A DNA stretch of 32,000 nucleotides from Candidatus Saccharimonadota bacterium (GCA_016432445.1 CP066689.1:1-32000); one strand, 5' to 3'; shown: positions 2 through 32,000, numbered from the stretch's first letter. Numbers and translations: made by a program. The notes: generated by a model from the letters alone, not told the origin.

Positions 2-3000
2 AGTACTGGTCGGATGTGGTATCTGGGAAGCACTGGCGGCTCAGATAAAAAAATATACTTATACAATCACCTAGCCGATGATTTACTTCTTGGCACAAAT
101 GGAGCTACAAATGTCACCATCCAAAATGGCGGCAATGTCGGCATCGGGACGACGAGTCCGGGGGCACAGCTTCAAGTTACTTCCGGAGCTGCTGGCACTA
201 CGGGGCTAATTATCAGAGGAGCAGCCTCTCAAACAGGTAACTTTTTGGGTTTTCAAAGATCTAATGGAGATTCATATCTGACCAGTGAACCTAATTCAGG
301 CACAGATTATAGAATGAAAACCAAAATTTATAACACGGTAGGCGCAAATGCTGACTATGCAGTTCTGGCTTGGTCTTATTTAGTAACCGGCGCTTTTAGT
401 ATAGGAACATACGCGGATGGCGCCGGTACTGCCCAACCACTTGTATTGGGTGTAGGAGCACAGGCTATGAGGATTGCCTCTGGCAATAATATAGGTATTG
501 GAGCCGAGTTTTCTACAGATAATGTGCCGGGTGAGGCACTTACTATTAGGGACAGTGGCCGTAATTTTGCTATCAACATGAACAAAATCTATAGCGACCT
601 GACTGCTACGGCATCCTCAGGAGGCAGTTTGACAGCAAATACATATTACTTTGTGGTAGTTGCCGTGGACGGGGCAGGAGGAACTACTGCTAAAAATACT
701 GAAAGATCAGCCACAGTTGATGGAGCAACAACCGATAGGGTAGCACTTAGTTGGAATGCAGTACAAGGAGCGGTTTCCTACAGGATTTATAAAGGAACCG
801 CTGCTGGTGAGGAGGATAGATATCAAACTTCCACCACTAATTCCTATAATTATGACTCTGATACAGGAGCTACTCTTGGGACTCCCCCAGTTACTACTAC
901 AGCTTATGTAGCTAAAATAGCCAACAATGGCAACAACTCATGGTTTAATGGAGGGAATGTAGGCATTGGGACAGCCAACCCCCTCGGATCTTTACATGTT
1001 GGAACAACATCTTTCTTTGTCGCTACAAATGGTAATGTGGGGATTGGGACAACAAATCCAAGTCAAAAACTAGAAGTGGCTTATAACGGTGGTAGTAGCG
1101 GCGATTTTGTAAGGATAACTGCGGCAAGCAGTATTGTAAATAAAGCAGAAATAAGGGGATATAGCTCAGGAGGAACAGTCACTGCACCAACAATTACAGC
1201 TACAGATGATGAGCTAGTTAACTTAGCAGGATATGGGTACGATACAACCGGAGCAAGTGATTACAAATTTGGTGGAGCAATAGACATTAATAGAGATAGT
1301 GGCGTAGGAAACTCAGCTCGTATTCCAGGCTATATCAGATTTAGAACTTCACAATCAAACGATTCAACAATCTATGAAAGAATGAGAATAACCAGCACAG
1401 GCAATGTTGGCATTGGGACAACTAATCCAACTGTACCTTTACACATCCGTAGCTCTGTCGCTGAAGTTAGAGTTGATGATGGCGGCGGTGATGTGGGAGC
1501 TTTACAGATTTCCAGCGGTAATGTCCGCATGGGTACTATTAGCGGTCACCCCCTTTGGCTAATGACCAACAGCACTTCAAGAGGTTCGCTCAGCGCCAAT
1601 GGCGGGTTTGCCTGGGGTAATACCTTTGCGTCATATGATCCGGGATCAACGAATATGATTGTTCAAGGCAATGTCGGTATTGGTATATCCAGTCCAGGAC
1701 AACAAAAACTGGAAGTAGCAGGGAATATCCAGATTGCCGCCAGCGGTACCCTCACAGCCGGAGCTAATGATTTAAACCTTGGCGCCGCAAGTTCAACAGA
1801 AACTAAAACCCTACAGATGTTTTACCGGACGTGGAGAGGACCTGACGATCTTGCTCTTTACACCGGAAGTACAGCCGGAGATTTCCGTGTCTATACTAAA
1901 AATTCCGGAGGCACAGATACAGAAAGACTCTGGATTACTGATGGCGACACCTCTAATATTATTTTCAGTAACGGCAATGTGGGTATTGGTACCACTTCTC
2001 CATTCGGCATGCTTCAGGTTGGCTCAACTAGCTCACCTTATGCCCCTGCTTTTTTTGTCTCGATTGGCAGTAACGTCGGGATCGGGACAACTGGTCCAGA
2101 TGCAAAACTCCGCGTGAGCGGATCTCTTATTGTTGGTGATTTAGCTAATGGATCACGTCAAGCATTTGAAGTCAATAAAGACAACGGTACTGTTTCCATC
2201 GGAAGCGCAAGCCAAGATGGTGAGTTATCTATCCGAAATACTGCAGGAAATAGAAACACATATTTTGAGAGTGTAGAAACGGAAACATCGTGGATAAATG
2301 TACTAGGAAGCGGCAAATTGGGCGTCGGGACAACTGCACCGTCTTCTAAACTTCAGGTTGCTGGTAATGTATCTATCGGTTATGCCGGTTCAAACAGTCC
2401 CGCTCCATCCAACAGTCTGGCTGTGTCAGGCAGCATCGGCATCGGGACAACTAGCCCCAATACTGCAACCCGCAGTTATACCCTAAATGTTCAAGGTGAC
2501 ATGATTGCTCAAACTTTTTACGACCTTAATGATGAAAGATATGTTATCGATCCAGCCGGAACAAGCTATATAAACGATTTAACTATCTGGGGAAATAACA
2601 CGATAAAAGGTCTTCCTACCGGCAGTACCGGTACTAACTACTCACCTCTCGTTCTCATAGGCTCCGGCAGTACAGCTACCACCTCCGTTTGTATTGATAC
2701 CGGCGGCGGCAATTGTGACGGTAAACTTGATGCCGGGACTATTGATCCTCCCTACACTATCAATGGTAAAAAGTATGCCACTTACCTGTCCTCAATGATA
2801 GGAATAAAGGAAGAAACCACCGGCGCAATTCAAACTTCTCAGTATATTACTGATACTGGGTACCAGTATGTTGTTGATTTTAATGATCTGGTAGAAGGCT
2901 CAGATTTATGGCTTTTCTCAAAGACGACTAATCTTAAAAAAAATCTTGATAAATTAGTGGCTCTTTTGACTCCGTCAGACAATACCCGTACCTGGTACAA

Positions 3001-4987
3001 AATAGATAAAGAAAATCTAAGATTAACTATCTTTAGTTCCCGCCCGACCACTATCTCTTATCGTCTGACTGCCCCAAGATTTGATCATGAAATATGGACA
3101 AACAGCCGTGAAGACGGAGGAAGCGGATTTATTATTGATGATCCGGATGTAGTCAGTAATCTTGCCCTAAATAATGACGGCAACGTCAGCTCTGTTTCGT
3201 ATACAATTGAAAAATCTTCGACATCCGACATTCGATCTTCGAATATCGAAAATCTAACATCGAATATCTACTCTCTCAAAGATTCCTTCGGTAATCTTAT
3301 CACCGAGGCCGCCGCCTACTCCAAAGCCACTATTGCAAACCTAACAGCAGGGATTATCACAGCCGAGGAAGTTCGTAGTTCGTCGTTCGTGGTTCGTAGC
3401 ATGGAAGCCATAACATCGAATATCGAAAATCTAACATCGAAGATTTTAAGCGCTACTGACGCCACCATCGCCCGCCTTATCGTTCAGGAAAAAATTATCT
3501 CCCCAGTTGTGGAAACTAAAGACCTAACCGTAACCGAAACAGCCAATTTGAACGAGATCAAACCAGTAGATAAAGATATCACAATCAATCTAGATAGTTC
3601 TGGGTCATGGGTTATGGGTGATGGGTCAAATCAAAACCCAGAACTCACAACCCAAAACCCACAACCATCAGATTCTGGTCCTCTTGCAAAATTAATCATC
3701 AAAGGCTTGGAGGGTAAAACCGCCGCCTCAATTGACGCTGCCGGCAACGCCACATTCTCAGGCACATTAACAGCTGAGGAAGTTCGTAGTTCGTCGTTCG
3801 TAGTTCGTAGCATGGAAGCCATAACATCGAATATCGAAAATCTAAAATCGAAAGAAGCAACGATATCCGGTACGCTAACCGCTAAAGAAGTAAAGGCAGA
3901 AAACATTGATAATCTTGAATCAAATGTCCAAAATTTATCATCGACTATCGAAGATCGAACATCGAATATCGATCAGATGAGCAATGACATCAATGACATT
4001 CAAGCCACCCTCGCCAAGATCAAGAGTGAACCTCTTCCTGATGCCCAGTATTATCAAAACATTAACAATAGTTCTGAGTTATGGGTTATGAGTGATGGGT
4101 CAAGTGCAACTGAATCAGCCCAAATTAATTCTGAACTCATAACCCAAAACCCACAACCCATAACCGATCTCACCGTCACCGGTTCCTCCAACCTCTACGA
4201 TGCCACCATTACCAACACGGCTGTTATCGGCAGTCTGTTTATGAAAGATAACTCTATCTTGGCTCTTTCCAGCGAGCTCAAACTTTCCTCACTCTCAATC
4301 ATTAATCTTTTTGACGGCGCCGTGGTCATCGCCAAAGATGGAACAATAACAACCAAAGGCACGTTAGTTGCTGAAGGCGGAATAAAGACTAATGAGATTA
4401 AACCAATAAATGAAGGGGAGGATGTAAGTGTCATCCTGAAGACGAAGTCTGAAGGATCTCTCGCGAATGCGAGTAATGCTGAAACAAGTTCAGAGATTCT
4501 TCGCTCCGCTCAGAATGACAATGCTAAATTCCAAATTCAAAATGAATTGGGTGAAAATGTTGCTTCAATCGACGCCTCAGGCTCGGCAAAATTCAACAGT
4601 CTCTCACTTAACAAATATATGGAAGCTACATCATCTGCCGCCATAATCGCCGCTCCTGATAACTTTGATAAAAATGGACTTTACGCTCCAGCTATTGAAA
4701 CCACTGTTGAAACCGCCGGAGTCGGTATAGTTCCTCAAAACCAAACTGAGGTAGTTATATATAATAATACTATTAAAGAAGATTCCCTCATCTATCTCAC
4801 CCCAACATCGAATATCGAAAATCGAACATCGGCAAGCCTAACTATAACCAAAAAACAATCTTGCCCCAGTCAAGAATCTAAGATCGAAGATCTAACATCT
4901 AAGATCTCGTGTAAGCCATACTTTAAAGTCGCCATACCTTCTCCAACTGTAGCACCAGTTAACTTCAACTGGCTCATTATTAATTAA
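2..4987 (+). CDS. giant GNVGIGT-repeat surface/adhesin-like protein (tail-fibre-like), probably 5' partial
   Basis: Longest ORF in the window (track 14..4987). The frame is open from nt 2, and there is no N-terminal signal or TM segment, unlike the paralog at 5124, so the start probably lies upstream of the window. About ten G-N-V-G-I-G-T-T-x-P motifs and an FN3-like segment (ALSWNAVQGAVSYRIYKG). The C-terminal third is built from short repeat modules. Function is inferred from motif resemblance only. Confidence 0.8.
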   Translation, partial: STGRMWYLGSTGGSDKKIYLYNHLADDLLLGTNGATNVTIQNGGNVGIGTTSPGAQLQVTSGAAGTTGLIIRGAASQTGNFLGFQRSNGDSYLTSEPNSGTDYRMKTKIYNTVGANADYAVLAWSYLVTGAFSIGTYADGAGTAQPLVLGVGAQAMRIASGNNIGIGAEFSTDNVPGEALTIRDSGRNFAINMNKIYSDLTATASSGGSLTANTYYFVVVAVDGAGGTTAKNTERSATVDGATTDRVALSWNAVQGAVSYRIYKGTAAGEEDRYQTSTTNSYNYDSDTGATLGTPPVTTTAYVAKIANNGNNSWFNGGNVGIGTANPLGSLHVGTTSFFVATNGNVGIGTTNPSQKLEVAYNGGSSGDFVRITAASSIVNKAEIRGYSSGGTVTAPTITATDDELVNLAGYGYDTTGASDYKFGGAIDINRDSGVGNSARIPGYIRFRTSQSNDSTIYERMRITSTGNVGIGTTNPTVPLHIRSSVAEVRVDDGGGDVGALQISSGNVRMGTISGHPLWLMTNSTSRGSLSANGGFAWGNTFASYDPGSTNMIVQGNVGIGISSPGQQKLEVAGNIQIAASGTLTAGANDLNLGAASSTETKTLQMFYRTWRGPDDLALYTGSTAGDFRVYTKNSGGTDTERLWITDGDTSNIIFSNGNVGIGTTSPFGMLQVGSTSSPYAPAFFVSIGSNVGIGTTGPDAKLRVSGSLIVGDLANGSRQAFEVNKDNGTVSIGSASQDGELSIRNTAGNRNTYFESVETETSWINVLGSGKLGVGTTAPSSKLQVAGNVSIGYAGSNSPAPSNSLAVSGSIGIGTTSPNTATRSYTLNVQGDMIAQTFYDLNDERYVIDPAGTSYINDLTIWGNNTIKGLPTGSTGTNYSPLVLIGSGSTATTSVCIDTGGGNCDGKLDAGTIDPPYTINGKKYATYLSSMIGIKEETTGAIQTSQYITDTGYQYVVDFNDLVEGSDLWLFSKTTNLKKNLDKLVALLTPSDNTRTWYKIDKENLRLTIFSSRPTTISYRLTAPRFDHEIWTNSREDGGSGFIIDDPDVVSNLALNNDGNVSSVSYTIEKSSTSDIRSSNIENLTSNIYSLKDSFGNLITEAAAYSKATIANLTAGIITAEEVRSSSFVVRSMEAITSNIENLTSKILSATDATIARLIVQEKIISPVVETKDLTVTETANLNEIKPVDKDITINLDSSGSWVMGDGSNQNPELTTQNPQPSDSGPLAKLIIKGLEGKTAASIDAAGNATFSGTLTAEEVRSSSFVVRSMEAITSNIENLKSKEATISGTLTAKEVKAENIDNLESNVQNLSSTIEDRTSNIDQMSNDINDIQATLAKIKSEPLPDAQYYQNINNSSELWVMSDGSSATESAQINSELITQNPQPITDLTVTGSSNLYDATITNTAVIGSLFMKDNSILALSSELKLSSLSIINLFDGAVVIAKDGTITTKGTLVAEGGIKTNEIKPINEGEDVSVILKTKSEGSLANASNAETSSEILRSAQNDNAKFQIQNELGENVASIDASGSAKFNSLSLNKYMEATSSAAIIAAPDNFDKNGLYAPAIETTVETAGVGIVPQNQTEVVIYNNTIKEDSLIYLTPTSNIENRTSASLTITKKQSCPSQESKIEDLTSKISCKPYFKVAIPSPTVAPVNFNWLIIN
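3214..3271 (+). repeat. heptamer array family D (ATCGAAN / ATCTTCG units), in-frame
   Basis: atcttcg acatccg acattcg atcttcg aatatcg aaaatct aacatcg aatatct, encoding SSTSDIRSSNIENLTSNIY. Confidence 0.85.
3359..3441 (+). repeat. 83-nt duplicated module, copy 1 (family F GTTCGTN array plus family D array)
   Basis: gaagttcgtagttcgtcgttcgtggttcgtagcatggaagccataacatcgaatatcgaaaatctaacatcgaa. Differs at 3 of 83 positions from 3770..3852. Encodes TAEEVRSSSFVVRSMEAITSNIENLTSK. Confidence 0.9.
3597..3666 (+). repeat. family E inverted heptamer array (GGGTNAT units then AACCCAN units), in-frame
   Basis: gttctgggtcatgggttatgggtgatgggtc ... aaaacccagaactcacaacccaaaacccacaacc, encoding SGSWVMGDGSNQNPELTTQNPQP. 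Confidence 0.8.
3770..3852 (+). repeat. 83-nt duplicated module, copy 2
   Basis: Direct repeat of 3359..3441 at an offset of 411 nt, with 3 mismatches. Confidence 0.9.
3941..3975 (+). repeat. heptamer array family D, in-frame
   Basis: Five units: tcgacta tcgaaga tcgaaca tcgaata tcgatca, encoding STIEDRTSNIDQ. Confidence 0.85.
4071..4165 (+). repeat. family E inverted heptamer array, in-frame
   Basis: gttctgagttatgggttatgagtgatgggtc ... tctgaactcataacccaaaacccacaacccataacc. The right arm is nearly identical to intergenic 13282..13310. Confidence 0.85.
4430..4519 (+). repeat. 90-nt palindromic element with GTCATCCTGA...TCAGAATGAC termini, in-frame (30 codons)
   Basis: Terminal inverted repeats gtcatcctgaagacgaag / cttcgctccgctcagaatgac, with internal hairpins ctcgc-gaat-gcgag and ctgaa-acaag-ttcag. 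Encodes VILKTKSEGSLANASNAETSSEILRSAQND. Confidence 0.8.
4807..4831 (+). repeat. heptamer array family D, in-frame
   Basis: atcgaat atcgaaa atcgaac atcg, encoding TSNIENRTS. Confidence 0.8.
4876..4909 (+). repeat. heptamer array family C (ATCTAAG units), in-frame
   Basis: atctaag atcgaag atctaac atctaag atctcg, encoding SKIEDLTSKIS. Confidence 0.8.
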
Positions 4988-8407: not shown

Positions 8408-8441
8408 TTATCTCTCCCCTTTTTAATAAATTATTATATAA

Positions 8442-8477
8442 CCGTTATAATTGTTATAATCGTTATAACTGTTATAA
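8442..8477 (+). repeat. four tandem 9-bp units NNGTTATAA directly upstream of the pilin-like gene
   Basis: ccgttataa ttgttataa tcgttataa ctgttataa, then actt ATG. The junctions create two exact TATAAT hexamers. Confidence 0.85.
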
Positions 8478-9356: not shown

Positions 9357-10415
9357 TTATTTCAAAAAACTTTGCGGGTTAAGAAGTGTTCCACCCAGTC
9401 TTATCTCAAAATGAAGATGCGTGCCGGTTGATCTTCCAGTTGAACCCATATTGCCGACCTTTTGTCCTTGAGAAACAACCTGTCCGGCCGACACGTCAAA
9501 GGAAGATAAATGTCCATAAAGAGTTTGGTAACCATTGCCATGATCAACAGTAATGTAACACCCATATCCCCAGCTAATACATCCGGCATAAGTTACAGTA
9601 CCAGTATCTGAAGCTATAATGGCAGGCGCTGACGGATTGGCAATATCAAGCGCCATATGGTACCAAACAGGATATTGAGTAATTATGCCTGAGGTCGGCC
9701 AGATAAAGTTTGATGACCCTTTAACTCCAGCTTGAATAGTCGCTATAAATTGCTGGTAACGCGGCTGCTCTTCCTCTACTACTCCATCAGGTACATAAAG
9801 AACTTGACCGGCTGTCAAGCTGAAATTTTCAAGATCGCTAAACTCATTAAATGGAAAGTTGACAATTTTCTGGGCATCAGTTTTGTATTTTTTGGCAATG
9901 CTGTAAATATTATCGCCGGAGTTTACTTTGTGGACTACCCCCGTGATCGGAGGGATTTTCAGTTTTTGACCTGGTTTTATATCATCAGTTTTTAAATCAT
10001 TAGCCCATTTGATTGTATCAACTGAAACGTCAAATTTATTAGCTACCCCACTTAAAGTATCGCCGCCTAGCACCTCGTACTCAACGACTTTGTCGCGCGG
10101 CTTGGCTGAGATAACTGTTGAAAGTGAGTTTTCTGATGGATTATATGCAACAACTAAAGCTTGATATTTCCCGGTTGATTGATCAAGTGAGTTGATAAAT
10201 GGATTATTTTCCGCTATGGCAGGACCTCCGATTATGGCTGCTGCCACTAACACAAAAAAAGAAGTATTTAAAAAAGATGTTGAGTATTTGCCGCGCTTAA
10301 CAATAAGAAAAGCCACCACTACATCTTTAAACTGCTCAAATCTCTGACCAAAGTCCCACACCCTTGACTTGAGATAGTCTTTAAAAAATAACAGGAATAA
10401 CCGCAGCTCATCCAT
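9357..10415 (-). CDS. LysM-domain M23 family metallopeptidase
   Basis: N-terminal TM segment and two LysM-like repeats (GDTLSGVANKFDVSVDTIKWAN; GDNIYSIAKKYKTDAQKIV). C-terminal M23 motifs HMALDIA and GSTGRSTGTHLHFEI. Confidence 0.85.
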   Translation of the reverse strand: MDELRLFLLFFKDYLKSRVWDFGQRFEQFKDVVVAFLIVKRGKYSTSFLNTSFFVLVAAAIIGGPAIAENNPFINSLDQSTGKYQALVVAYNPSENSLSTVISAKPRDKVVEYEVLGGDTLSGVANKFDVSVDTIKWANDLKTDDIKPGQKLKIPPITGVVHKVNSGDNIYSIAKKYKTDAQKIVNFPFNEFSDLENFSLTAGQVLYVPDGVVEEEQPRYQQFIATIQAGVKGSSNFIWPTSGIITQYPVWYHMALDIANPSAPAIIASDTGTVTYAGCISWGYGCYITVDHGNGYQTLYGHLSSFDVSAGQVVSQGQKVGNMGSTGRSTGTHLHFEIRLGGTLLNPQSFLK

Positions 10416-10506
10416 AAAGTATGGTTATATTATACTAAATAACTTCACTTTCCTCACGATTGTTGAATATAATCCATTGCTTACTCACTTACTAATCGTC
10501 ATAATT

Positions 10507-10540
10507 TGATTCATGATTCACGATTCAGGATTCATGAATA
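10507..10540. repeat. family B heptamer array (NGATTCA units)
   Basis: tgattca tgattca cgattca ggattca tgaata. Overlaps the 5' end of the four-helix-bundle ORF. Confidence 0.85.
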
Positions 10541-10955
10541 TTATGAATAATACTAATAATTTGCCTACCACTACGAAAATTCGAGAGTTTACGGATTTAA
10601 AAGCTTGGCAAGAAAGCCATAAATTAGTAATTTTAATTTATAAAGTTACAAGAGACTTCCCAGAAAATGAAAAATATTCTCTTGTTGATCAAATGAGAAG
10701 ATCGTGTCAATTACAAGTAATATTGTTGAAGGATTTGGACGACAAACCTATAAAGATAAGATTCATTTTTACTATCAAGCACAAGGATCTTTAACAGAGC
10801 TTAAAAATCAACTTCTACTTGCAAAAGATATCAATTATCTTAAAGAACCTCATGTTCACCAATCTTTTAAACAAATCACATCAGCTCATCAATTACTTCA
10901 AGGCCTTATCAGGAAATCTAAATCTTTTTTAAAACTCGTGAATCATGAATCTTAA
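10513..10955 (+). pseudogene. four-helix-bundle protein (23S rRNA intervening-sequence protein family), frameshifted
   Basis: Two overlapping ORFs in different frames (10513..10794 and 10704..10955) together give the family pattern: FTDLKAWQESHKLVILIYKVTRDFP...EKYSLVDQMRRS / SITSNIVEGFGRQTYKDKIHFYYQAQGSLTELKNQL. The frame breaks near 10702-10706. It could also be a sequencing error. Confidence 0.7.
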
Positions 10956-10967
10956 ATCATGAATCGC
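10937..10967. repeat. family B heptamer array, complementary orientation (CATGAAT units)
   Basis: cgtgaat catgaat cttaaat catgaat cgc. Inverted relative to 10507..10540. Contains the stop codon of the four-helix ORF, and 23 nt are identical to part of 13116..13185. Confidence 0.85.
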
Positions 10968-26238: not shown

Positions 26239-26253
26239 ACTCAAGTATTGGAA

Positions 26254-28011
26254 ATGAAAAAATTTATAATCTTTATAATTATTATAGCCGTTATAACGGT
26301 TATACATGTAAACGAAATATATGCCTCAGGAATTCAGGGTGATGCTGACGGTAATGGCGTCGTTAACAGCGTTGATTATTTTTATTATGTTGCCTCTGTT
26401 AATGGAGGTCACGTTCCAAGTTCTGTTAATCTTGATTTTAATGAAGATGGCGAGGTTGGACTTTTCGACCGTGCGATTATTATCAGCCACATCAGTAACC
26501 CAACTCCGACGCCAACATCTGCGTTAGGGAAAACAAATTTACCTCCCGGCATTTACGTTTATTACGACTGGGAAAGCCTTGATCCTGCAGTTTATCCCTG
26601 GATTAAAGGCGGAGAAATCGCAACCCGGTGGAACCTTATCGAACCTGAAGAAGGAACAATGAGCTGGACTGATCTTGAAAAATGGATTGATAATAATGCC
26701 AGAAAAAATAAAGGCATTACTCTAAAAATTACGGCTCACGACCGCGACTACAGCGGCATCCCCAACTGGATTTATGCAAGACATAATGTGCCGAAAATAA
26801 AAATCGGTGATCAAAACTGCAGTTATAATTCCAACTGTTTTTATCCCAAATGGTGGGATACTAATTTTATAAACAAATATACCAATATGATTAAACGGGT
26901 CGGAGAAAAATATAATAATGATCCCAGAATTGGAGCCATCATTGTGGCTATTGGTGAATATGGAGAAGCTTTTCCAGGCTATGGCAATCTAAGTTGGGAT
27001 ACCACACCCAAAAATCATGATCAATATTGGGAGGAAGCAGGCCTTACTCCTGATATTTGGATAAACTACAGCAAAAAAATAATTGATGCTTATGTAAAAG
27101 CTTTTCCCAATAAACTGCTTTTTCTTTTGGAGCAGGCATTTGAAGGCAAAAATAATGACGCCCTTACTGATTATGCCGCCTCTTCTGGAGTCAATATGGG
27201 ATTTGCCGGATTAACCGCTGACAATGACCACAATAGCCGGTGGTACACTCCTTTTTCTAAATATGTTGAAACTGGCACTCTTTTGGGCAGACTTGAACAA
27301 GGTTATGGCGGAAGTATAAGTCCGCGTTTAGTTTACTGGTCAGCTTTGAATGCTTTACGCAATCACGCTTATATTATCTCTTTTTATGGACAACCCAACA
27401 AAGATCAAGCAAACTCTGAAACTCTCAACTTCGCCAATAAATATGCCGGCACGAAAATAAAAGATACTCCGGGCGCCTGGATTGCTTTTAAAGGCAAGCC
27501 GGGTGATGATGTGATTTGGCAAGGTCATGAGGGAAATTATGAGTTTTGGATTAAACAGATTAACCCGGAAACAACTACCTTGCCTGTTTTTGATTGGGAT
27601 AAACCCAACCAGACTTTAAAAAATGCAGGAACAAAAGAAGGTATGTACTCAAGAAAAACTGATCTCTCAACCGGTAAGAATACTTTTTACCTTAATATTT
27701 ATGATCAATATGTTTCTGCTTTAAATAATGCCCGATTTAATACTTTAGTTATTGGTAAACAGGCAAAAATTACAGTTAAATATTTGAATAATAACAATGG
27801 CCAGATAGTAGTAAAATACGATAGTTTTTCAGGAGCAAAAACAGCCGGAATAGTAACCAAGACAAATACAAATACCTGGGAATCAGTGAGCTTTACAGTC
27901 ACTGATGCTTATTTTAATAACCGCCTGAATAATAATTCTGATATTACCATAACTGCTTCAGGCGAAAATGCCACCCTTCACATGGTTGAAGTCGAGATTG
28001 AACAGCCGTAG
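26254..28011 (+). CDS. secreted dockerin-repeat protein with a putative glycoside-hydrolase-like (TIM-barrel) domain
   Basis: Signal peptide (FIIFIIIIAVITVIHVNEIYA), dockerin/EF-hand-like repeats (DADGNGVVNSVD, DFNEDGEVGLFD) and a PTPTPT linker. This is followed by WNLIEPEEGTMSWTDLEKWID, which resembles GH5/GH42-type N-terminal strands. ATG 26254 is preferred over TTG 26248. The catalytic assignment is tentative. Confidence 0.7.
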   Translation: MKKFIIFIIIIAVITVIHVNEIYASGIQGDADGNGVVNSVDYFYYVASVNGGHVPSSVNLDFNEDGEVGLFDRAIIISHISNPTPTPTSALGKTNLPPGIYVYYDWESLDPAVYPWIKGGEIATRWNLIEPEEGTMSWTDLEKWIDNNARKNKGITLKITAHDRDYSGIPNWIYARHNVPKIKIGDQNCSYNSNCFYPKWWDTNFINKYTNMIKRVGEKYNNDPRIGAIIVAIGEYGEAFPGYGNLSWDTTPKNHDQYWEEAGLTPDIWINYSKKIIDAYVKAFPNKLLFLLEQAFEGKNNDALTDYAASSGVNMGFAGLTADNDHNSRWYTPFSKYVETGTLLGRLEQGYGGSISPRLVYWSALNALRNHAYIISFYGQPNKDQANSETLNFANKYAGTKIKDTPGAWIAFKGKPGDDVIWQGHEGNYEFWIKQINPETTTLPVFDWDKPNQTLKNAGTKEGMYSRKTDLSTGKNTFYLNIYDQYVSALNNARFNTLVIGKQAKITVKYLNNNNGQIVVKYDSFSGAKTAGIVTKTNTNTWESVSFTVTDAYFNNRLNNNSDITITASGENATLHMVEVEIEQP

Positions 28012-30313: not shown

Positions 30314-30398
30314 GAGATCTTAGATGTTAGATCTTTGATCTTAGATCAAATTACAAAAATATATAATATCGAATATCCAAGATCTAAGATCTCAGATC
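30314..30398. repeat. family C heptamer hairpin element between convergent rpiB and dprA
   Basis: Left arm gagatcttagatgttagatctttgatcttagatc, right arm atcgaatatccaagatctaagatctcagatc. T-rich tract after the stem on the minus strand (dprA side). Confidence 0.9.
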
Positions 30399-31485
30399 AA
30401 AAATCTCTTAACTGGAACTTCCCCTCTTCATTTCTGTCAATTATTTTTTTCACTTCCATAATTGACAACAATGGCAGTAAGTTATGAATTTGAGTTTTAC
30501 ATTCCAAAGCTAGATCATCAGCATTAAGCGGCTGAAAACTTAAACAGTCATATATTTTTTTCTCATCTGCAGTTAAGGTAAGATTAACTTCTTTTTTTGA
30601 AGGCGCCGCTTTAAGATTAAACTCATTTAAGATATCCTCAACTGAAGTTGCTAAAACCGCGCCTTGTTTTAGTAGAATATTTGGCGCTTCAGAAAGTTCA
30701 GAGGTTAAAGGCACAGGGGGCGCAAAAACCTCTTTTCCCTGCAAAGCCGCATACTTGGCTGTTATCAAAGCTCCGGATTTATTAGTTCCCTCAACTACTA
30801 AAACTCCCTTAGATAAACCTGAAATTAGTCTGTTCCGGGCAATAAAAAGTCCCGGCAAAACTGTCCTTCCCGGAGGAAATTCGGAGATAACTAATCCATT
30901 CTCTTTAATTATCTGCTCATATAATTTTCTATTACCAGGAGGATAAACAATATCAACGCCACACCCTAAAAAAGCTACCGTTTTTCCATGGCAGTTTAAA
31001 GCTGATTGATGAGCGATCGTATCAATTCCTTGCGCCAAACCCGACACAATGGTGGCCCCGGTTTCGGCAAGCTTAAGAGAAAACATTTTGGTTATTTGCT
31101 GACCATAAGGACTGGGTTTTCTTGTTCCAACAACTGCAAAATAAAATCCCTCATCAAAATTATATTTTTTAATATCTCCCTTAACATAAAGGCATATTGG
31201 CGGATCTGGGATATTAATGATGGATGAAGGATAAAAAGAATCTTCTTGAGTAATAATCATTATCTCTTTTTCTACAATTTCCTGGTATTTTTTTTGAGCA
31301 TCAAACTTATTTTTAAAATCAATAAAATCTGCGGCTGTTTTTTCTCCAATTAATGGTTTTATTTCGGAAAAAGAAGCTTCATAGGCTTGTTTTACATCAC
31401 CAAAAGTATCTAATAATTTTCTAAATTTCATCGGCCCAATCCCTAAGAAATGGGAAAAGGCGAGGTAATAATAAATATTCTTCAT
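30397..31485 (-). CDS. dprA: DNA-processing protein DprA (Smf)
   Basis: AVVGTRKPSPYG, VSGLAQGIDTIAHQSAL, VAFLGCGVDIVYP, FIARNRLISGLS and GALITAKYAALQGKEVFA. ATG 31485 (MKNIYYY) is preferred over the repeat-encoded track start at 31500. Confidence 0.9.
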   Translation of the reverse strand: MKNIYYYLAFSHFLGIGPMKFRKLLDTFGDVKQAYEASFSEIKPLIGEKTAADFIDFKNKFDAQKKYQEIVEKEIMIITQEDSFYPSSIINIPDPPICLYVKGDIKKYNFDEGFYFAVVGTRKPSPYGQQITKMFSLKLAETGATIVSGLAQGIDTIAHQSALNCHGKTVAFLGCGVDIVYPPGNRKLYEQIIKENGLVISEFPPGRTVLPGLFIARNRLISGLSKGVLVVEGTNKSGALITAKYAALQGKEVFAPPVPLTSELSEAPNILLKQGAVLATSVEDILNEFNLKAAPSKKEVNLTLTADEKKIYDCLSFQPLNADDLALECKTQIHNLLPLLSIMEVKKIIDRNEEGKFQLRDF

Positions 31486-31517
31486 AAATCCAAATGACAA
31501 ATTTCAAATGTCAAATT
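31486..31517. repeat. family A heptamer array (single arm)
   Basis: aaatccaaatgacaaatttcaaatgtcaaatt. The inverted partner is at 31861..31913, on the other side of the four-helix-bundle gene. Confidence 0.85.
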
Positions 31518-31890
31518 ACTTACAACTTCTAATAATGGAGGAAAATATTAAGGATAATTCATGAGCCTCTTGAGAAAATTTTCTACACTGAATTCCCAAA
31601 TCAGGGCGAGCTATTAATAACATACGTACCCAATAAACAGATTCTTTTGCCTCTTTCTTGCATAACCCAATTTTGTGAATAAAATCTTTTTTTGATTCAG
31701 CACCATCGGCTTCCGCATAATTAGCGCCTATACTAGTAGCCGATCTTACAAGCTGGCTTTTTATTGGTGTAATTATAGGGTTATCAGATAACCTCATTAA
31801 GAATGTGATAACCTCTTCACCATATTTTGCAGTTCTCTCTATTAAATCGTATTTTCTTTGTAAATTTGGATTTTGGATTTGATTTGGCAT
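31516..31890 (-). CDS. four-helix-bundle protein (23S rRNA intervening-sequence protein family)
   Basis: YDLIERTAKYGEEVITFL, QLVRSATSIGANYAEADGAESKKDFIHKIGLCKKEAKESVYWVRML. The start codon and the first ~10 residues (MPNQIQNPNLQ) are encoded by the family A array. Confidence 0.85.
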   Translation of the reverse strand: MPNQIQNPNLQRKYDLIERTAKYGEEVITFLMRLSDNPIITPIKSQLVRSATSIGANYAEADGAESKKDFIHKIGLCKKEAKESVYWVRMLLIARPDLGIQCRKFSQEAHELSLIFSSIIRSCK

Positions 31891-31913
31891 TTGACATTTG
31901 AAATTTGGATTTT
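31861..31913. repeat. family A heptamer array, complementary orientation
   Basis: taaatttggattttggatttgatttggcatttgacatttgaaatttggatttt. Confidence 0.85.
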
Positions 31914-32000
31914 CCTAAACTGTATTACCTTCCATACAGAAAGTCTAGAGACTATATACAACAATATTAAGTAAAGCAGAAGTTAATTTAGGCAGAATAT

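Follow-up and report, generated by a model that had tools for sequence, protein, structure and literature searches.

How two small genes of the four-helix-bundle family PF05635/TIGR02436 come to lie in ordinary spacers between inverted arrays of tandem heptamers, a layout that recalls the ORF-bearing intervening sequences (IVSs) of 23S rRNA, is the question raised by this locus. The window, by which we mean the whole stretch of DNA analyzed here, is the initial 32 kb (32,000 nucleotides) of a Candidatus Saccharimonadota genome that consists of a single contig of 1.10 Mb with 35% G+C and whose sole 23S rRNA gene (631068-633964, 2,897 nt) matches the 23S model end to end and carries no insert. 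An earlier note on this DNA had suggested either that the gene travels with, or is captured by, hairpin elements, or that its transcript is processed through the flanking stem. Our analysis leads us to regard it as probable that both loci represent an IVS-like hairpin cassette of 430-530 bp, in which a PF05635 gene occupies the loop and inverted arrays of about four units form the arms, and which relocates, usually rides host transcripts and has gene-less derivatives.

The first cassette is placed between the stop codon of a TPR gene on one side and the promoter of an M23/LysM peptidase gene (9357-10415) on the other. Its 5′ arm (10507-10543, plus strand) is built from ~4.4 tandem NGATTCA units, which we assign to family B, and holds in-frame ATG codons at 10513, 10534 and 10543, while its 3′ arm (10930-10967, plus strand) is built from TGAATCA units inverted with respect to the 5′ arm and ends ~10 nt short of the TPR stop codon (10977). 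The leader and promoter region of the peptidase gene (10416-10506, minus strand) contains a conserved box, TATTATACT. Repeat arrays were called with Tandem Repeats Finder, which at this locus returned period-7 arrays at 10507-10537 (TGATTCA, 4.4 copies) and 10939-10965 (TGAATCA, 3.9 copies); together the arms constitute an inverted repeat of 36 nt that is 83% complementary, with a 16-nt perfect core at 10508-10523/10936-10951. The gene between them, copy 1 (10543-10955, plus strand), is antisense to both neighbors and apparently frameshifted, such that the PF05635 match changes frame (10594-10707 covers profile positions 2-39, and 10704-10901 covers 40-105; 44.7 and 64.3 bits for the two halves in the PF05635/TIGR02436 profile test) and two bases at ~10700-10704 replace a whole number of codons present in intact relatives. 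The stop codon (10953-10955) and the final residues LVNHES are 3′ array sequence. The sole frameshifted copy in the window is the antisense one, and because it is both antisense and frameshifted, this copy at least, among the four in the genome, may be dead.

The second cassette sits in a run of genes that all read from the minus strand in the order M20 peptidase, cassette, dprA. In gene orientation its 5′ arm (31861-31913, minus strand) consists of AAATCCA/AAATGTC units and its 3′ arm (31486-31517, minus strand) of the inverted GACATTT/TGGATTT units (family A), and the 3′ arm directly adjoins the start codon (31485) of dprA (30397-31485, minus strand), the host gene immediately downstream. 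The arrays were called at 31491-31517 and 31864-31912, and the inverted repeat (31486-31532/31866-31912) extends over 47 nt with 77% complementarity and a 19-nt perfect core. Copy 2 (31516-31890, minus strand, as for the M20 peptidase and dprA) is intact at 124 aa and scores 71.1 bits against TIGR02436 (cut-off 24) and 48.9 bits against PF05635 (cut-off 33.8); its ATG (31890) and first ~10 codons (MPNQIQNPNL) are array sequence. Upstream of the cassette today lies the ancestral dprA leader (31914-31958, minus strand), with TTAGGA at 31914-31919 and a box, TATATAGTCTCTAGAC, at 31943-31958 that is also kept at empty sites in four other genera. Since the box and TTAGGA lie upstream of the cassette and the 3′ arm abuts the ATG, 31486-31913 is extra sequence between a ribosome-binding-like TTAGGA and the dprA start codon. 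The family B and family A arrays that the earlier note had described in inverted orientation around copies 1 and 2 were therefore recovered together with their inverted repeats, as was the overlap of the arrays with the gene ends.

Heptamer arrays are common in this genome, with 383 merged arrays in 1.1 Mb and about 64 in the first 50 kb, and two short genes might simply have fallen between arrays of the same family because such arrays are so frequent in spacers. Some 15 genes do have same-family inverted arrays at both ends. These genes are flanked in this way because each of the flanking spacers holds a complete hairpin, and in the usual spacer both inverted arms stand side by side, unlike the split arms at PF05635 genes. 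To separate the two arrangements, ~1,143 crude ORFs were scored for inverted sequence at both ends and for any local partner of either arm. The genome contains four PF05635/TIGR02436 genes, copies 3 and 4 lying outside the window at ~76.0 kb and ~385.0 kb (131 and 102 bits in the profile test), and all four are placed between single inverted arms, neither of which has a partner nearby. Hardly any other ORF is framed likewise, the exceptions being one spurious 56-aa ORF that is really a nested hairpin and one weak 14-nt match, or roughly 0.2%. Each of the four cassettes uses its own repeat family (copy 1, NGATTCA; copy 2, AAATGTC/AAATCCA; copy 3, TCGATAT; copy 4, GTTATGG/GGTTGTG), and the loops hold nothing beyond the small PF05635 gene, with no other ORF. 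The earlier note had cautioned that arrays are common in spacers anyway, so that copies might prove to be framed no oftener than random genes; with every four-helix-bundle gene in the genome now surveyed, the framing is instead confined almost entirely to this family.

The same specificity was found outside this genome. We sampled the 40 nearest genomes, every one from another genus, of which 25 carry PF05635 genes; a metagenome scan with DprA gave best relatives of at most 41% identity, and an exact-protein look-up returned one other assembly with the window locus, identical to the window. The arm test set comprised 88 near-full-length PF05635 genes with enough flank from 23 related genera, a gene being counted as framed when its flanking inverted arms scored at least 13, and controls were made by matching the zone upstream of a gene to the zone downstream of a different gene. 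Seventy of the 88 genes (80%) were framed, compared with 2.1% of the mismatched upstream/downstream pairs, and the array period in these relatives is mainly 7 and at times 8-10. Given this excess both here and in the related genera, chance placement of the two genes is scarcely credible.

Comparison of the syntenic loci in relatives, which the earlier note had recommended, revealed empty sites at both window loci. In four relatives (G005, G011, G001 and G010) the M20-dprA spacer is 55-100 nt long, has no arrays and retains a conserved promoter-like box, TATAGTCTACAGAC. The TPR-M23 spacer is likewise empty in three (G010, G012 and G030; 72-90 nt, array-free), contains gene-less heptamer hairpins in G036, has arms around what is left of the 3′ part of a four-helix-bundle gene in G039, and is filled by a complete cassette in G013, positioned 92 nt from the M23 start codon as compared with 91 nt for cassette 1 here. 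By lineage the G013 cassette goes with copy 2, to which it is 60% identical and with which it shares family-A arms and the array-encoded N-terminus MxNQIQNPN, and not with copy 1, so that one spot is occupied by different cassette lineages in two genera. Target-site duplications were absent from the filled/empty junctions and paralog boundaries (four junction sets), and neither a transposase nor a conserved end motif was seen for the cassettes.

Three further features of cassette sites in this genome and its relatives were recorded. A shared additional stretch of ~60 nt, with ...ATAATCCATT... as part of it, separates the cassette from the M23 promoter box both at window positions 10416-10506 and at positions 2138-2229 of locus L067 (G013), and it is missing from the empty sites of other genera; the TPR-M23 site was probably already occupied in the common ancestor of this genome and G013, with the cassette exchanged later. 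In several relatives (contigs C2 of G015, C33 of G013, C1 of G009 and C5 of G028) cassettes are spaced 1-3 kb apart, which suggests insertion hot spots. A second, longer ORF (174 aa), recognized by the NIAEG-type motif of the family (...QNIAEGSQ...), is found at 112-636 of locus L016 (G002, contig C36), 800 nt from an armed cassette.

We next consider what is carried from site to site. In a tree of the core domain, clades have arm units in common, and across genomes core-protein identity is correlated with 5′ arm similarity (Spearman 0.21; maximum of 1,000 permutations 0.096), a correlation that falls to 0.015 when one arm is reverse-complemented. Detectably homologous flanks were present in just 6 of 183 pairs with at least 45% protein identity, a count of limited power as the flanks are short (~330 nt). 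The nearest relatives of copy 1 are 57-62% identical to it and have arms of [T/A]GATTTA and [A/G]GATTTA units, compared with [T/C/G]GATTCA here, yet they are sited between comEC-like and comEA-like genes in G002 and between a pfkB-type kinase gene and gpmI in G009; NGATTYA arms accordingly run throughout the copy 1 clade across three different neighborhoods. Within the copy 2 clade, the array-encoded N-terminus MxNQIQNPN is kept.

The sharpest boundaries come from the genome G026, in which two paralogous cassettes 15 kb apart show homology bounded exactly by the outer arm ends, with arms 92-94% identical, genes 77% identical and flanks ~34% identical, a value equal to random. The differences between these two genes are distributed over the three codon positions as 12/9/56, which implies that purifying selection acts on the four-helix-bundle protein. 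Synonymous sites evolve far faster than the arms, which points either to constraint on arm sequence or to homogenization with gene-less copies; five gene-less copies of these arms are present in G026, some of them nearby, and one consists of both arms with a short loop. As far as such comparisons reach, they show that arm, gene and arm are passed on, duplicated and met at new places as one unit. The suggestion that the gene travels with hairpin elements thus drew support from three sides, namely shared arms at different sites, empty sites, and arm-to-arm homology between paralogs.

The opposite suggestion, capture, holds that the heptamer hairpins are independent host or selfish repeats and that a bare gene enters their pre-existing loops, as in helices 25 and 45 of 23S rRNA, so that the arms are landing pads. 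It would account for the fact that cassettes within one genome almost never have arms in common (7 of 156 pairs) and for a syntenic pair, copy 3 and locus L008 of G013, whose proteins are 65% identical and whose arms are unrelated. Even among pairs with at least 45% protein identity, arms are shared by just ~18-27%, and the tie between arms and protein is only a loose one. Capture is harder to reconcile with an arm unit that tracks the protein lineage across genera at non-syntenic sites, with the conservation of the array-encoded MxNQIQNPN in the copy 2 clade, and with empty sites in relatives that lack the arms as well as the gene.

The gene-less hairpins of this genome also bear on capture. 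Five families account for 192 of 209 period-7 arrays (A, 66; E, 41; D, 36; B, 34; C, 15), and each of these except E (AGATCTT) is represented by one of the four cassettes here. Median array length is 28 nt (~four units). Sequence outside ORF interiors makes up 14% of the genome and contains two thirds of the arrays; the remaining third (63 of 192, inside crude ORFs) is read in frame. Each of the 26 gene-less hairpins that were scored keeps the arm order of its family (A, 7/7; B, 7/7; D, 5/5; E, 7/7), and in the 19 hairpins of families A, B and D this order matches that of the family's cassette; many gene-less hairpins thus agree with the cassette arms in both family and arm order, as capture would have it. 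At 1022367-1022562, a complete second hairpin (CCAATAA/ACCAATT) is nested exactly in the 128-nt loop of a family-B hairpin, an indication that such loops can take up other hairpin elements. This part of the capture proposal, that loops accept inserts, stands.

Arrays and gene are, however, distributed among genomes in a way that capture does not predict. A 3.1-Mb sample from 20 genomes, with gene-present and gene-absent states both occurring in each of three taxonomic families, contained 4 period-7 arrays in 893 kb from the 11 genomes without PF05635, compared with 293 in 2,184 kb from the nine with PF05635, a density ~30-fold higher. Array density followed the number of PF05635 genes with a Spearman coefficient of 0.77 (0.09 for the period 5+6 control) across these 20 genomes, which are not phylogenetically independent. 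Some genomes (G032 and G036) have the gene but few arrays, whereas many arrays without the gene were not seen among the 20 genomes sampled, in which gene-less heptamer hairpins, too, were confined to those with the gene. This asymmetry is more easily understood if the arrays depend on the cassette than if the gene depends on pre-existing arrays. Capture of a bare gene is consequently unlikely in our judgment, and the cassette that moves with its arms remains the reading we prefer.

Two stricter forms of the relation between cassettes and arrays were tried and rejected. The share of arrays matching the arms of the genome's own cassettes is 64% here and 21-38% in G005, G026, G007 and G028, and a strict rule of one cassette to one family did not hold in the other genomes, where enrichment was just 2-5-fold and the own cassettes ranked 1st to 6th of 23. 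Clustering of each family around its cognate cassette was not found in this genome either, the families being dispersed and all enriched near the contig start.

Several observations on the arrays themselves are given here in their own right. Two of seven positions distinguish AGATCTT, the unit of family E, from CGATTTT, that of family C, and one E unit (75967-75975) caps the outer arm end of cassette 3; because the units are close in sequence and an E unit caps that arm, family E may be derived from family C. Single arms lie in frame within the housekeeping genes pth (1012036-1012069), rsmH (531798-531832) and gatB (582627-582657), and the array in the peptidyl-tRNA hydrolase gene is read as ...ISNFKLQISN.... 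In the window, about ten arrays (TCGAATA, AGTTCGT, ATCGAAA, GTTATGG and CAAAACC), including inverted pairs, occupy 3239-4165 inside a 1,657-aa ORF (14-4987), so that either these arrays are translated or the ORF is a fusion. Period-9 GTTATAACC arrays, a repeat family separate from the heptamers, are located at 8437-8477, directly before a pilin-like gene (8482), and at 26264-26304, at the start of the ORF 26248-28011.

At the RNA level, minimum-free-energy folding of the four whole cassettes, sense and antisense, closed the terminal stem in every case, with 26-49 pairs between the ends and arm duplex energies of −33 to −49 kcal/mol. RNase III is encoded in the genome (rnc). In relatives the cassette usually lies on the host coding strand, with 34 sense and 3 antisense among cassettes that have co-directional neighbor genes. 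Scans around both window cassettes yielded promoter sites no more numerous than in shuffled sequence and no intrinsic-terminator-like sites at the arms. Processing of the transcript through the flanking stem, the other possibility raised by the earlier note, is plausible on this modeling, given that the stems close in the folds, RNase III is encoded and the sense bias is strong. The sense bias, and the fact that copy 2 lies downstream of the dprA promoter, further suggest a cassette with no promoter of its own that is co-transcribed with its host and excised at the stem. In the mechanism we propose, the cassette would be transcribed by read-through from the host promoter, the arms would pair into a 20-45-bp RNA stem, and RNase III would cut this stem as it does in the 23S rRNA IVS, freeing a small mRNA that would thereby be uncoupled from the host message. 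Gene-less hairpins would be non-autonomous or gene-deleted derivatives of the cassette, and the arms within a genome would be kept alike through copying or gene conversion.

The closed stems, the encoded RNase III and the sense bias could equally be cited for a purely regulatory, immobile stem, that is, a vertically inherited RNA structure with a role in processing, stability or translation control, in which case the gene-less hairpins would be unrelated terminator-like or slippage repeats. Heptamer arrays can indeed grow by slippage, and their copy number differs among Coxiella strains (PMC4990558). An immobile stem would not, on the other hand, place one lineage with the same arms in different neighborhoods or different lineages at one spot in two genera, nor would it explain why paralog homology stops exactly at the arm ends. 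Moreover, the arms are free of intrinsic-terminator-like sites and arrays also occur in frame within genes, both of which weigh against it as well. We hold a stem of this immobile kind to be quite improbable and retain the mobile cassette, whose transcript may be processed in the same way.

The closest known counterpart is the helix-45 IVS of Coxiella burnetii, a 428-nt 23S rRNA insert that encodes S23p and has a 28-bp terminal stem cut by RNase III at mid-stem (Warrier et al. 2016, PMC4990558). GACAGAT heptamers directly precede its ORF, which belongs to the PF05635 family and is apparently decaying, and the IVS has been suggested to be a former mobile element (PMC4990558); the Leptospira IVS is another ORF-bearing 23S IVS (Ralph and McClelland 1993, cited in PMC4990558). 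The cassettes agree with the 23S IVS in protein family, in size (428 nt as against 430-530 bp here), in carrying the ORF in the loop of a terminal-repeat stem, in the tandem heptamers beside that ORF, and in sense insertion within a host transcript. They differ in lying between protein-coding genes, in mRNA leaders and spacers and not in rRNA, which is the defining feature of an IVS, and in their number, since four copies occur here, each with its own repeat unit and accompanied by about a hundred gene-less hairpins. The ORFs here are also under purifying selection, whereas the Coxiella ORF appears to decay, and RNase III cleavage, shown for Coxiella, is what we infer for the cassettes.

A second parallel is the REP/RAYT (REPIN) system, reportedly described by Nunvar et al. 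in 2010 and by Bertels and Rainey in 2011, in which a gene is said to be flanked by an inverted short repeat that is also dispersed as gene-less doublets. In common with that system, a single-copy gene lies here between inverted repeats that are also scattered as gene-less hairpins, the repeats are absent where the gene is absent, and several gene/repeat-family pairs coexist in one genome (here four genes and four of five families). The protein, by contrast, is a ~120-aa four-helix bundle without a known catalytic motif that matches only PF05635/TIGR02436, and is no Y1 (HUH) transposase; tandem heptamer arrays take the place of a 20-30-nt imperfect palindrome; and the correspondence of one gene to one family holds only weakly in the other genomes examined, with family E lacking a gene here.

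Heptanucleotide repeats as such have been described as the cyanobacterial STRR and as the GGGAATC-type repeats of Xanthomonas and Nostoc (Rehm et al. 2015, PMC4692102), and the TAACTGA repeats of Beggiatoaceae are almost all direct (PMC4679880). Like the arrays studied here they comprise 2-6 tandem 7-nt units, are mostly intergenic and near start codons, and are lineage-specific. Here, however, they are paired as inverted arms and tied to PF05635, whereas PMC4692102 and PMC4679880 link the repeats to no gene family, PMC4679880 making no mention of a four-helix bundle or IVS protein; full-text searches turned up no publication that connects PF05635 outside rRNA with inverted heptamer arrays. 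Miniature inverted-repeat elements (MITEs) and Rickettsia palindromic elements resemble the gene-less hairpins as small non-coding palindromes located in spacers and in frame within genes, but at our loci there is no target-site duplication or cognate transposase, and the arms are tandem 7-mers with a slippable pairing register.

The four-helix bundle itself has a relative in Avd of the diversity-generating retroelements, which belongs to the same fold superfamily. Avd is pentameric, a small basic partner protein that binds nucleic acid. The closest solved structures to the family, 2GSC and 2RLD, are uncharacterized proteins each deposited with five chains, in line with pentameric Avd. In contrast to an Avd system, the genome has no template/variable repeats and no match to a reverse transcriptase (RVT_1) anywhere, and the Avd model NF033474 scores 41.6 bits against a cut-off of 80. 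The genome likewise has no PF13366 (GxxExxY nuclease) gene, so that neither this nuclease nor a reverse transcriptase is available as a partner for the cassette-less family E, and PADLOC defense-system models gave no family match at E ≤ 0.01. By analogy with Avd, recognition of the arms by the four-helix-bundle protein is possible. We accordingly offer, as a proposal that we consider possible but doubtful, that the protein could be a trans-acting factor of hairpin elements without a transposase, one that would recognize its own 7-nt arms, whether in DNA or in RNA, and help to copy or maintain them. A single element family would then comprise gene-less hairpins (STRR-type repeats) as its non-autonomous form, armed cassettes as its autonomous form and ORF-bearing rRNA IVSs as its rRNA-resident form.

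Three puzzles that have gone without explanation for decades, the ORF-bearing 23S IVS, the function of the four-helix bundle and the origin of bacterial heptanucleotide arrays, thus meet in one object, a small gene with its own repeat arms that relocates, has gene-less derivatives and whose presence predicts the repeats. If the protein binds its own arms, the cassette would represent a novel type of element, mobile or self-maintaining, that lacks a recognizable recombinase; if it does not, the cassette would still be an rRNA-type processing module inside the mRNAs of a minimal genome.
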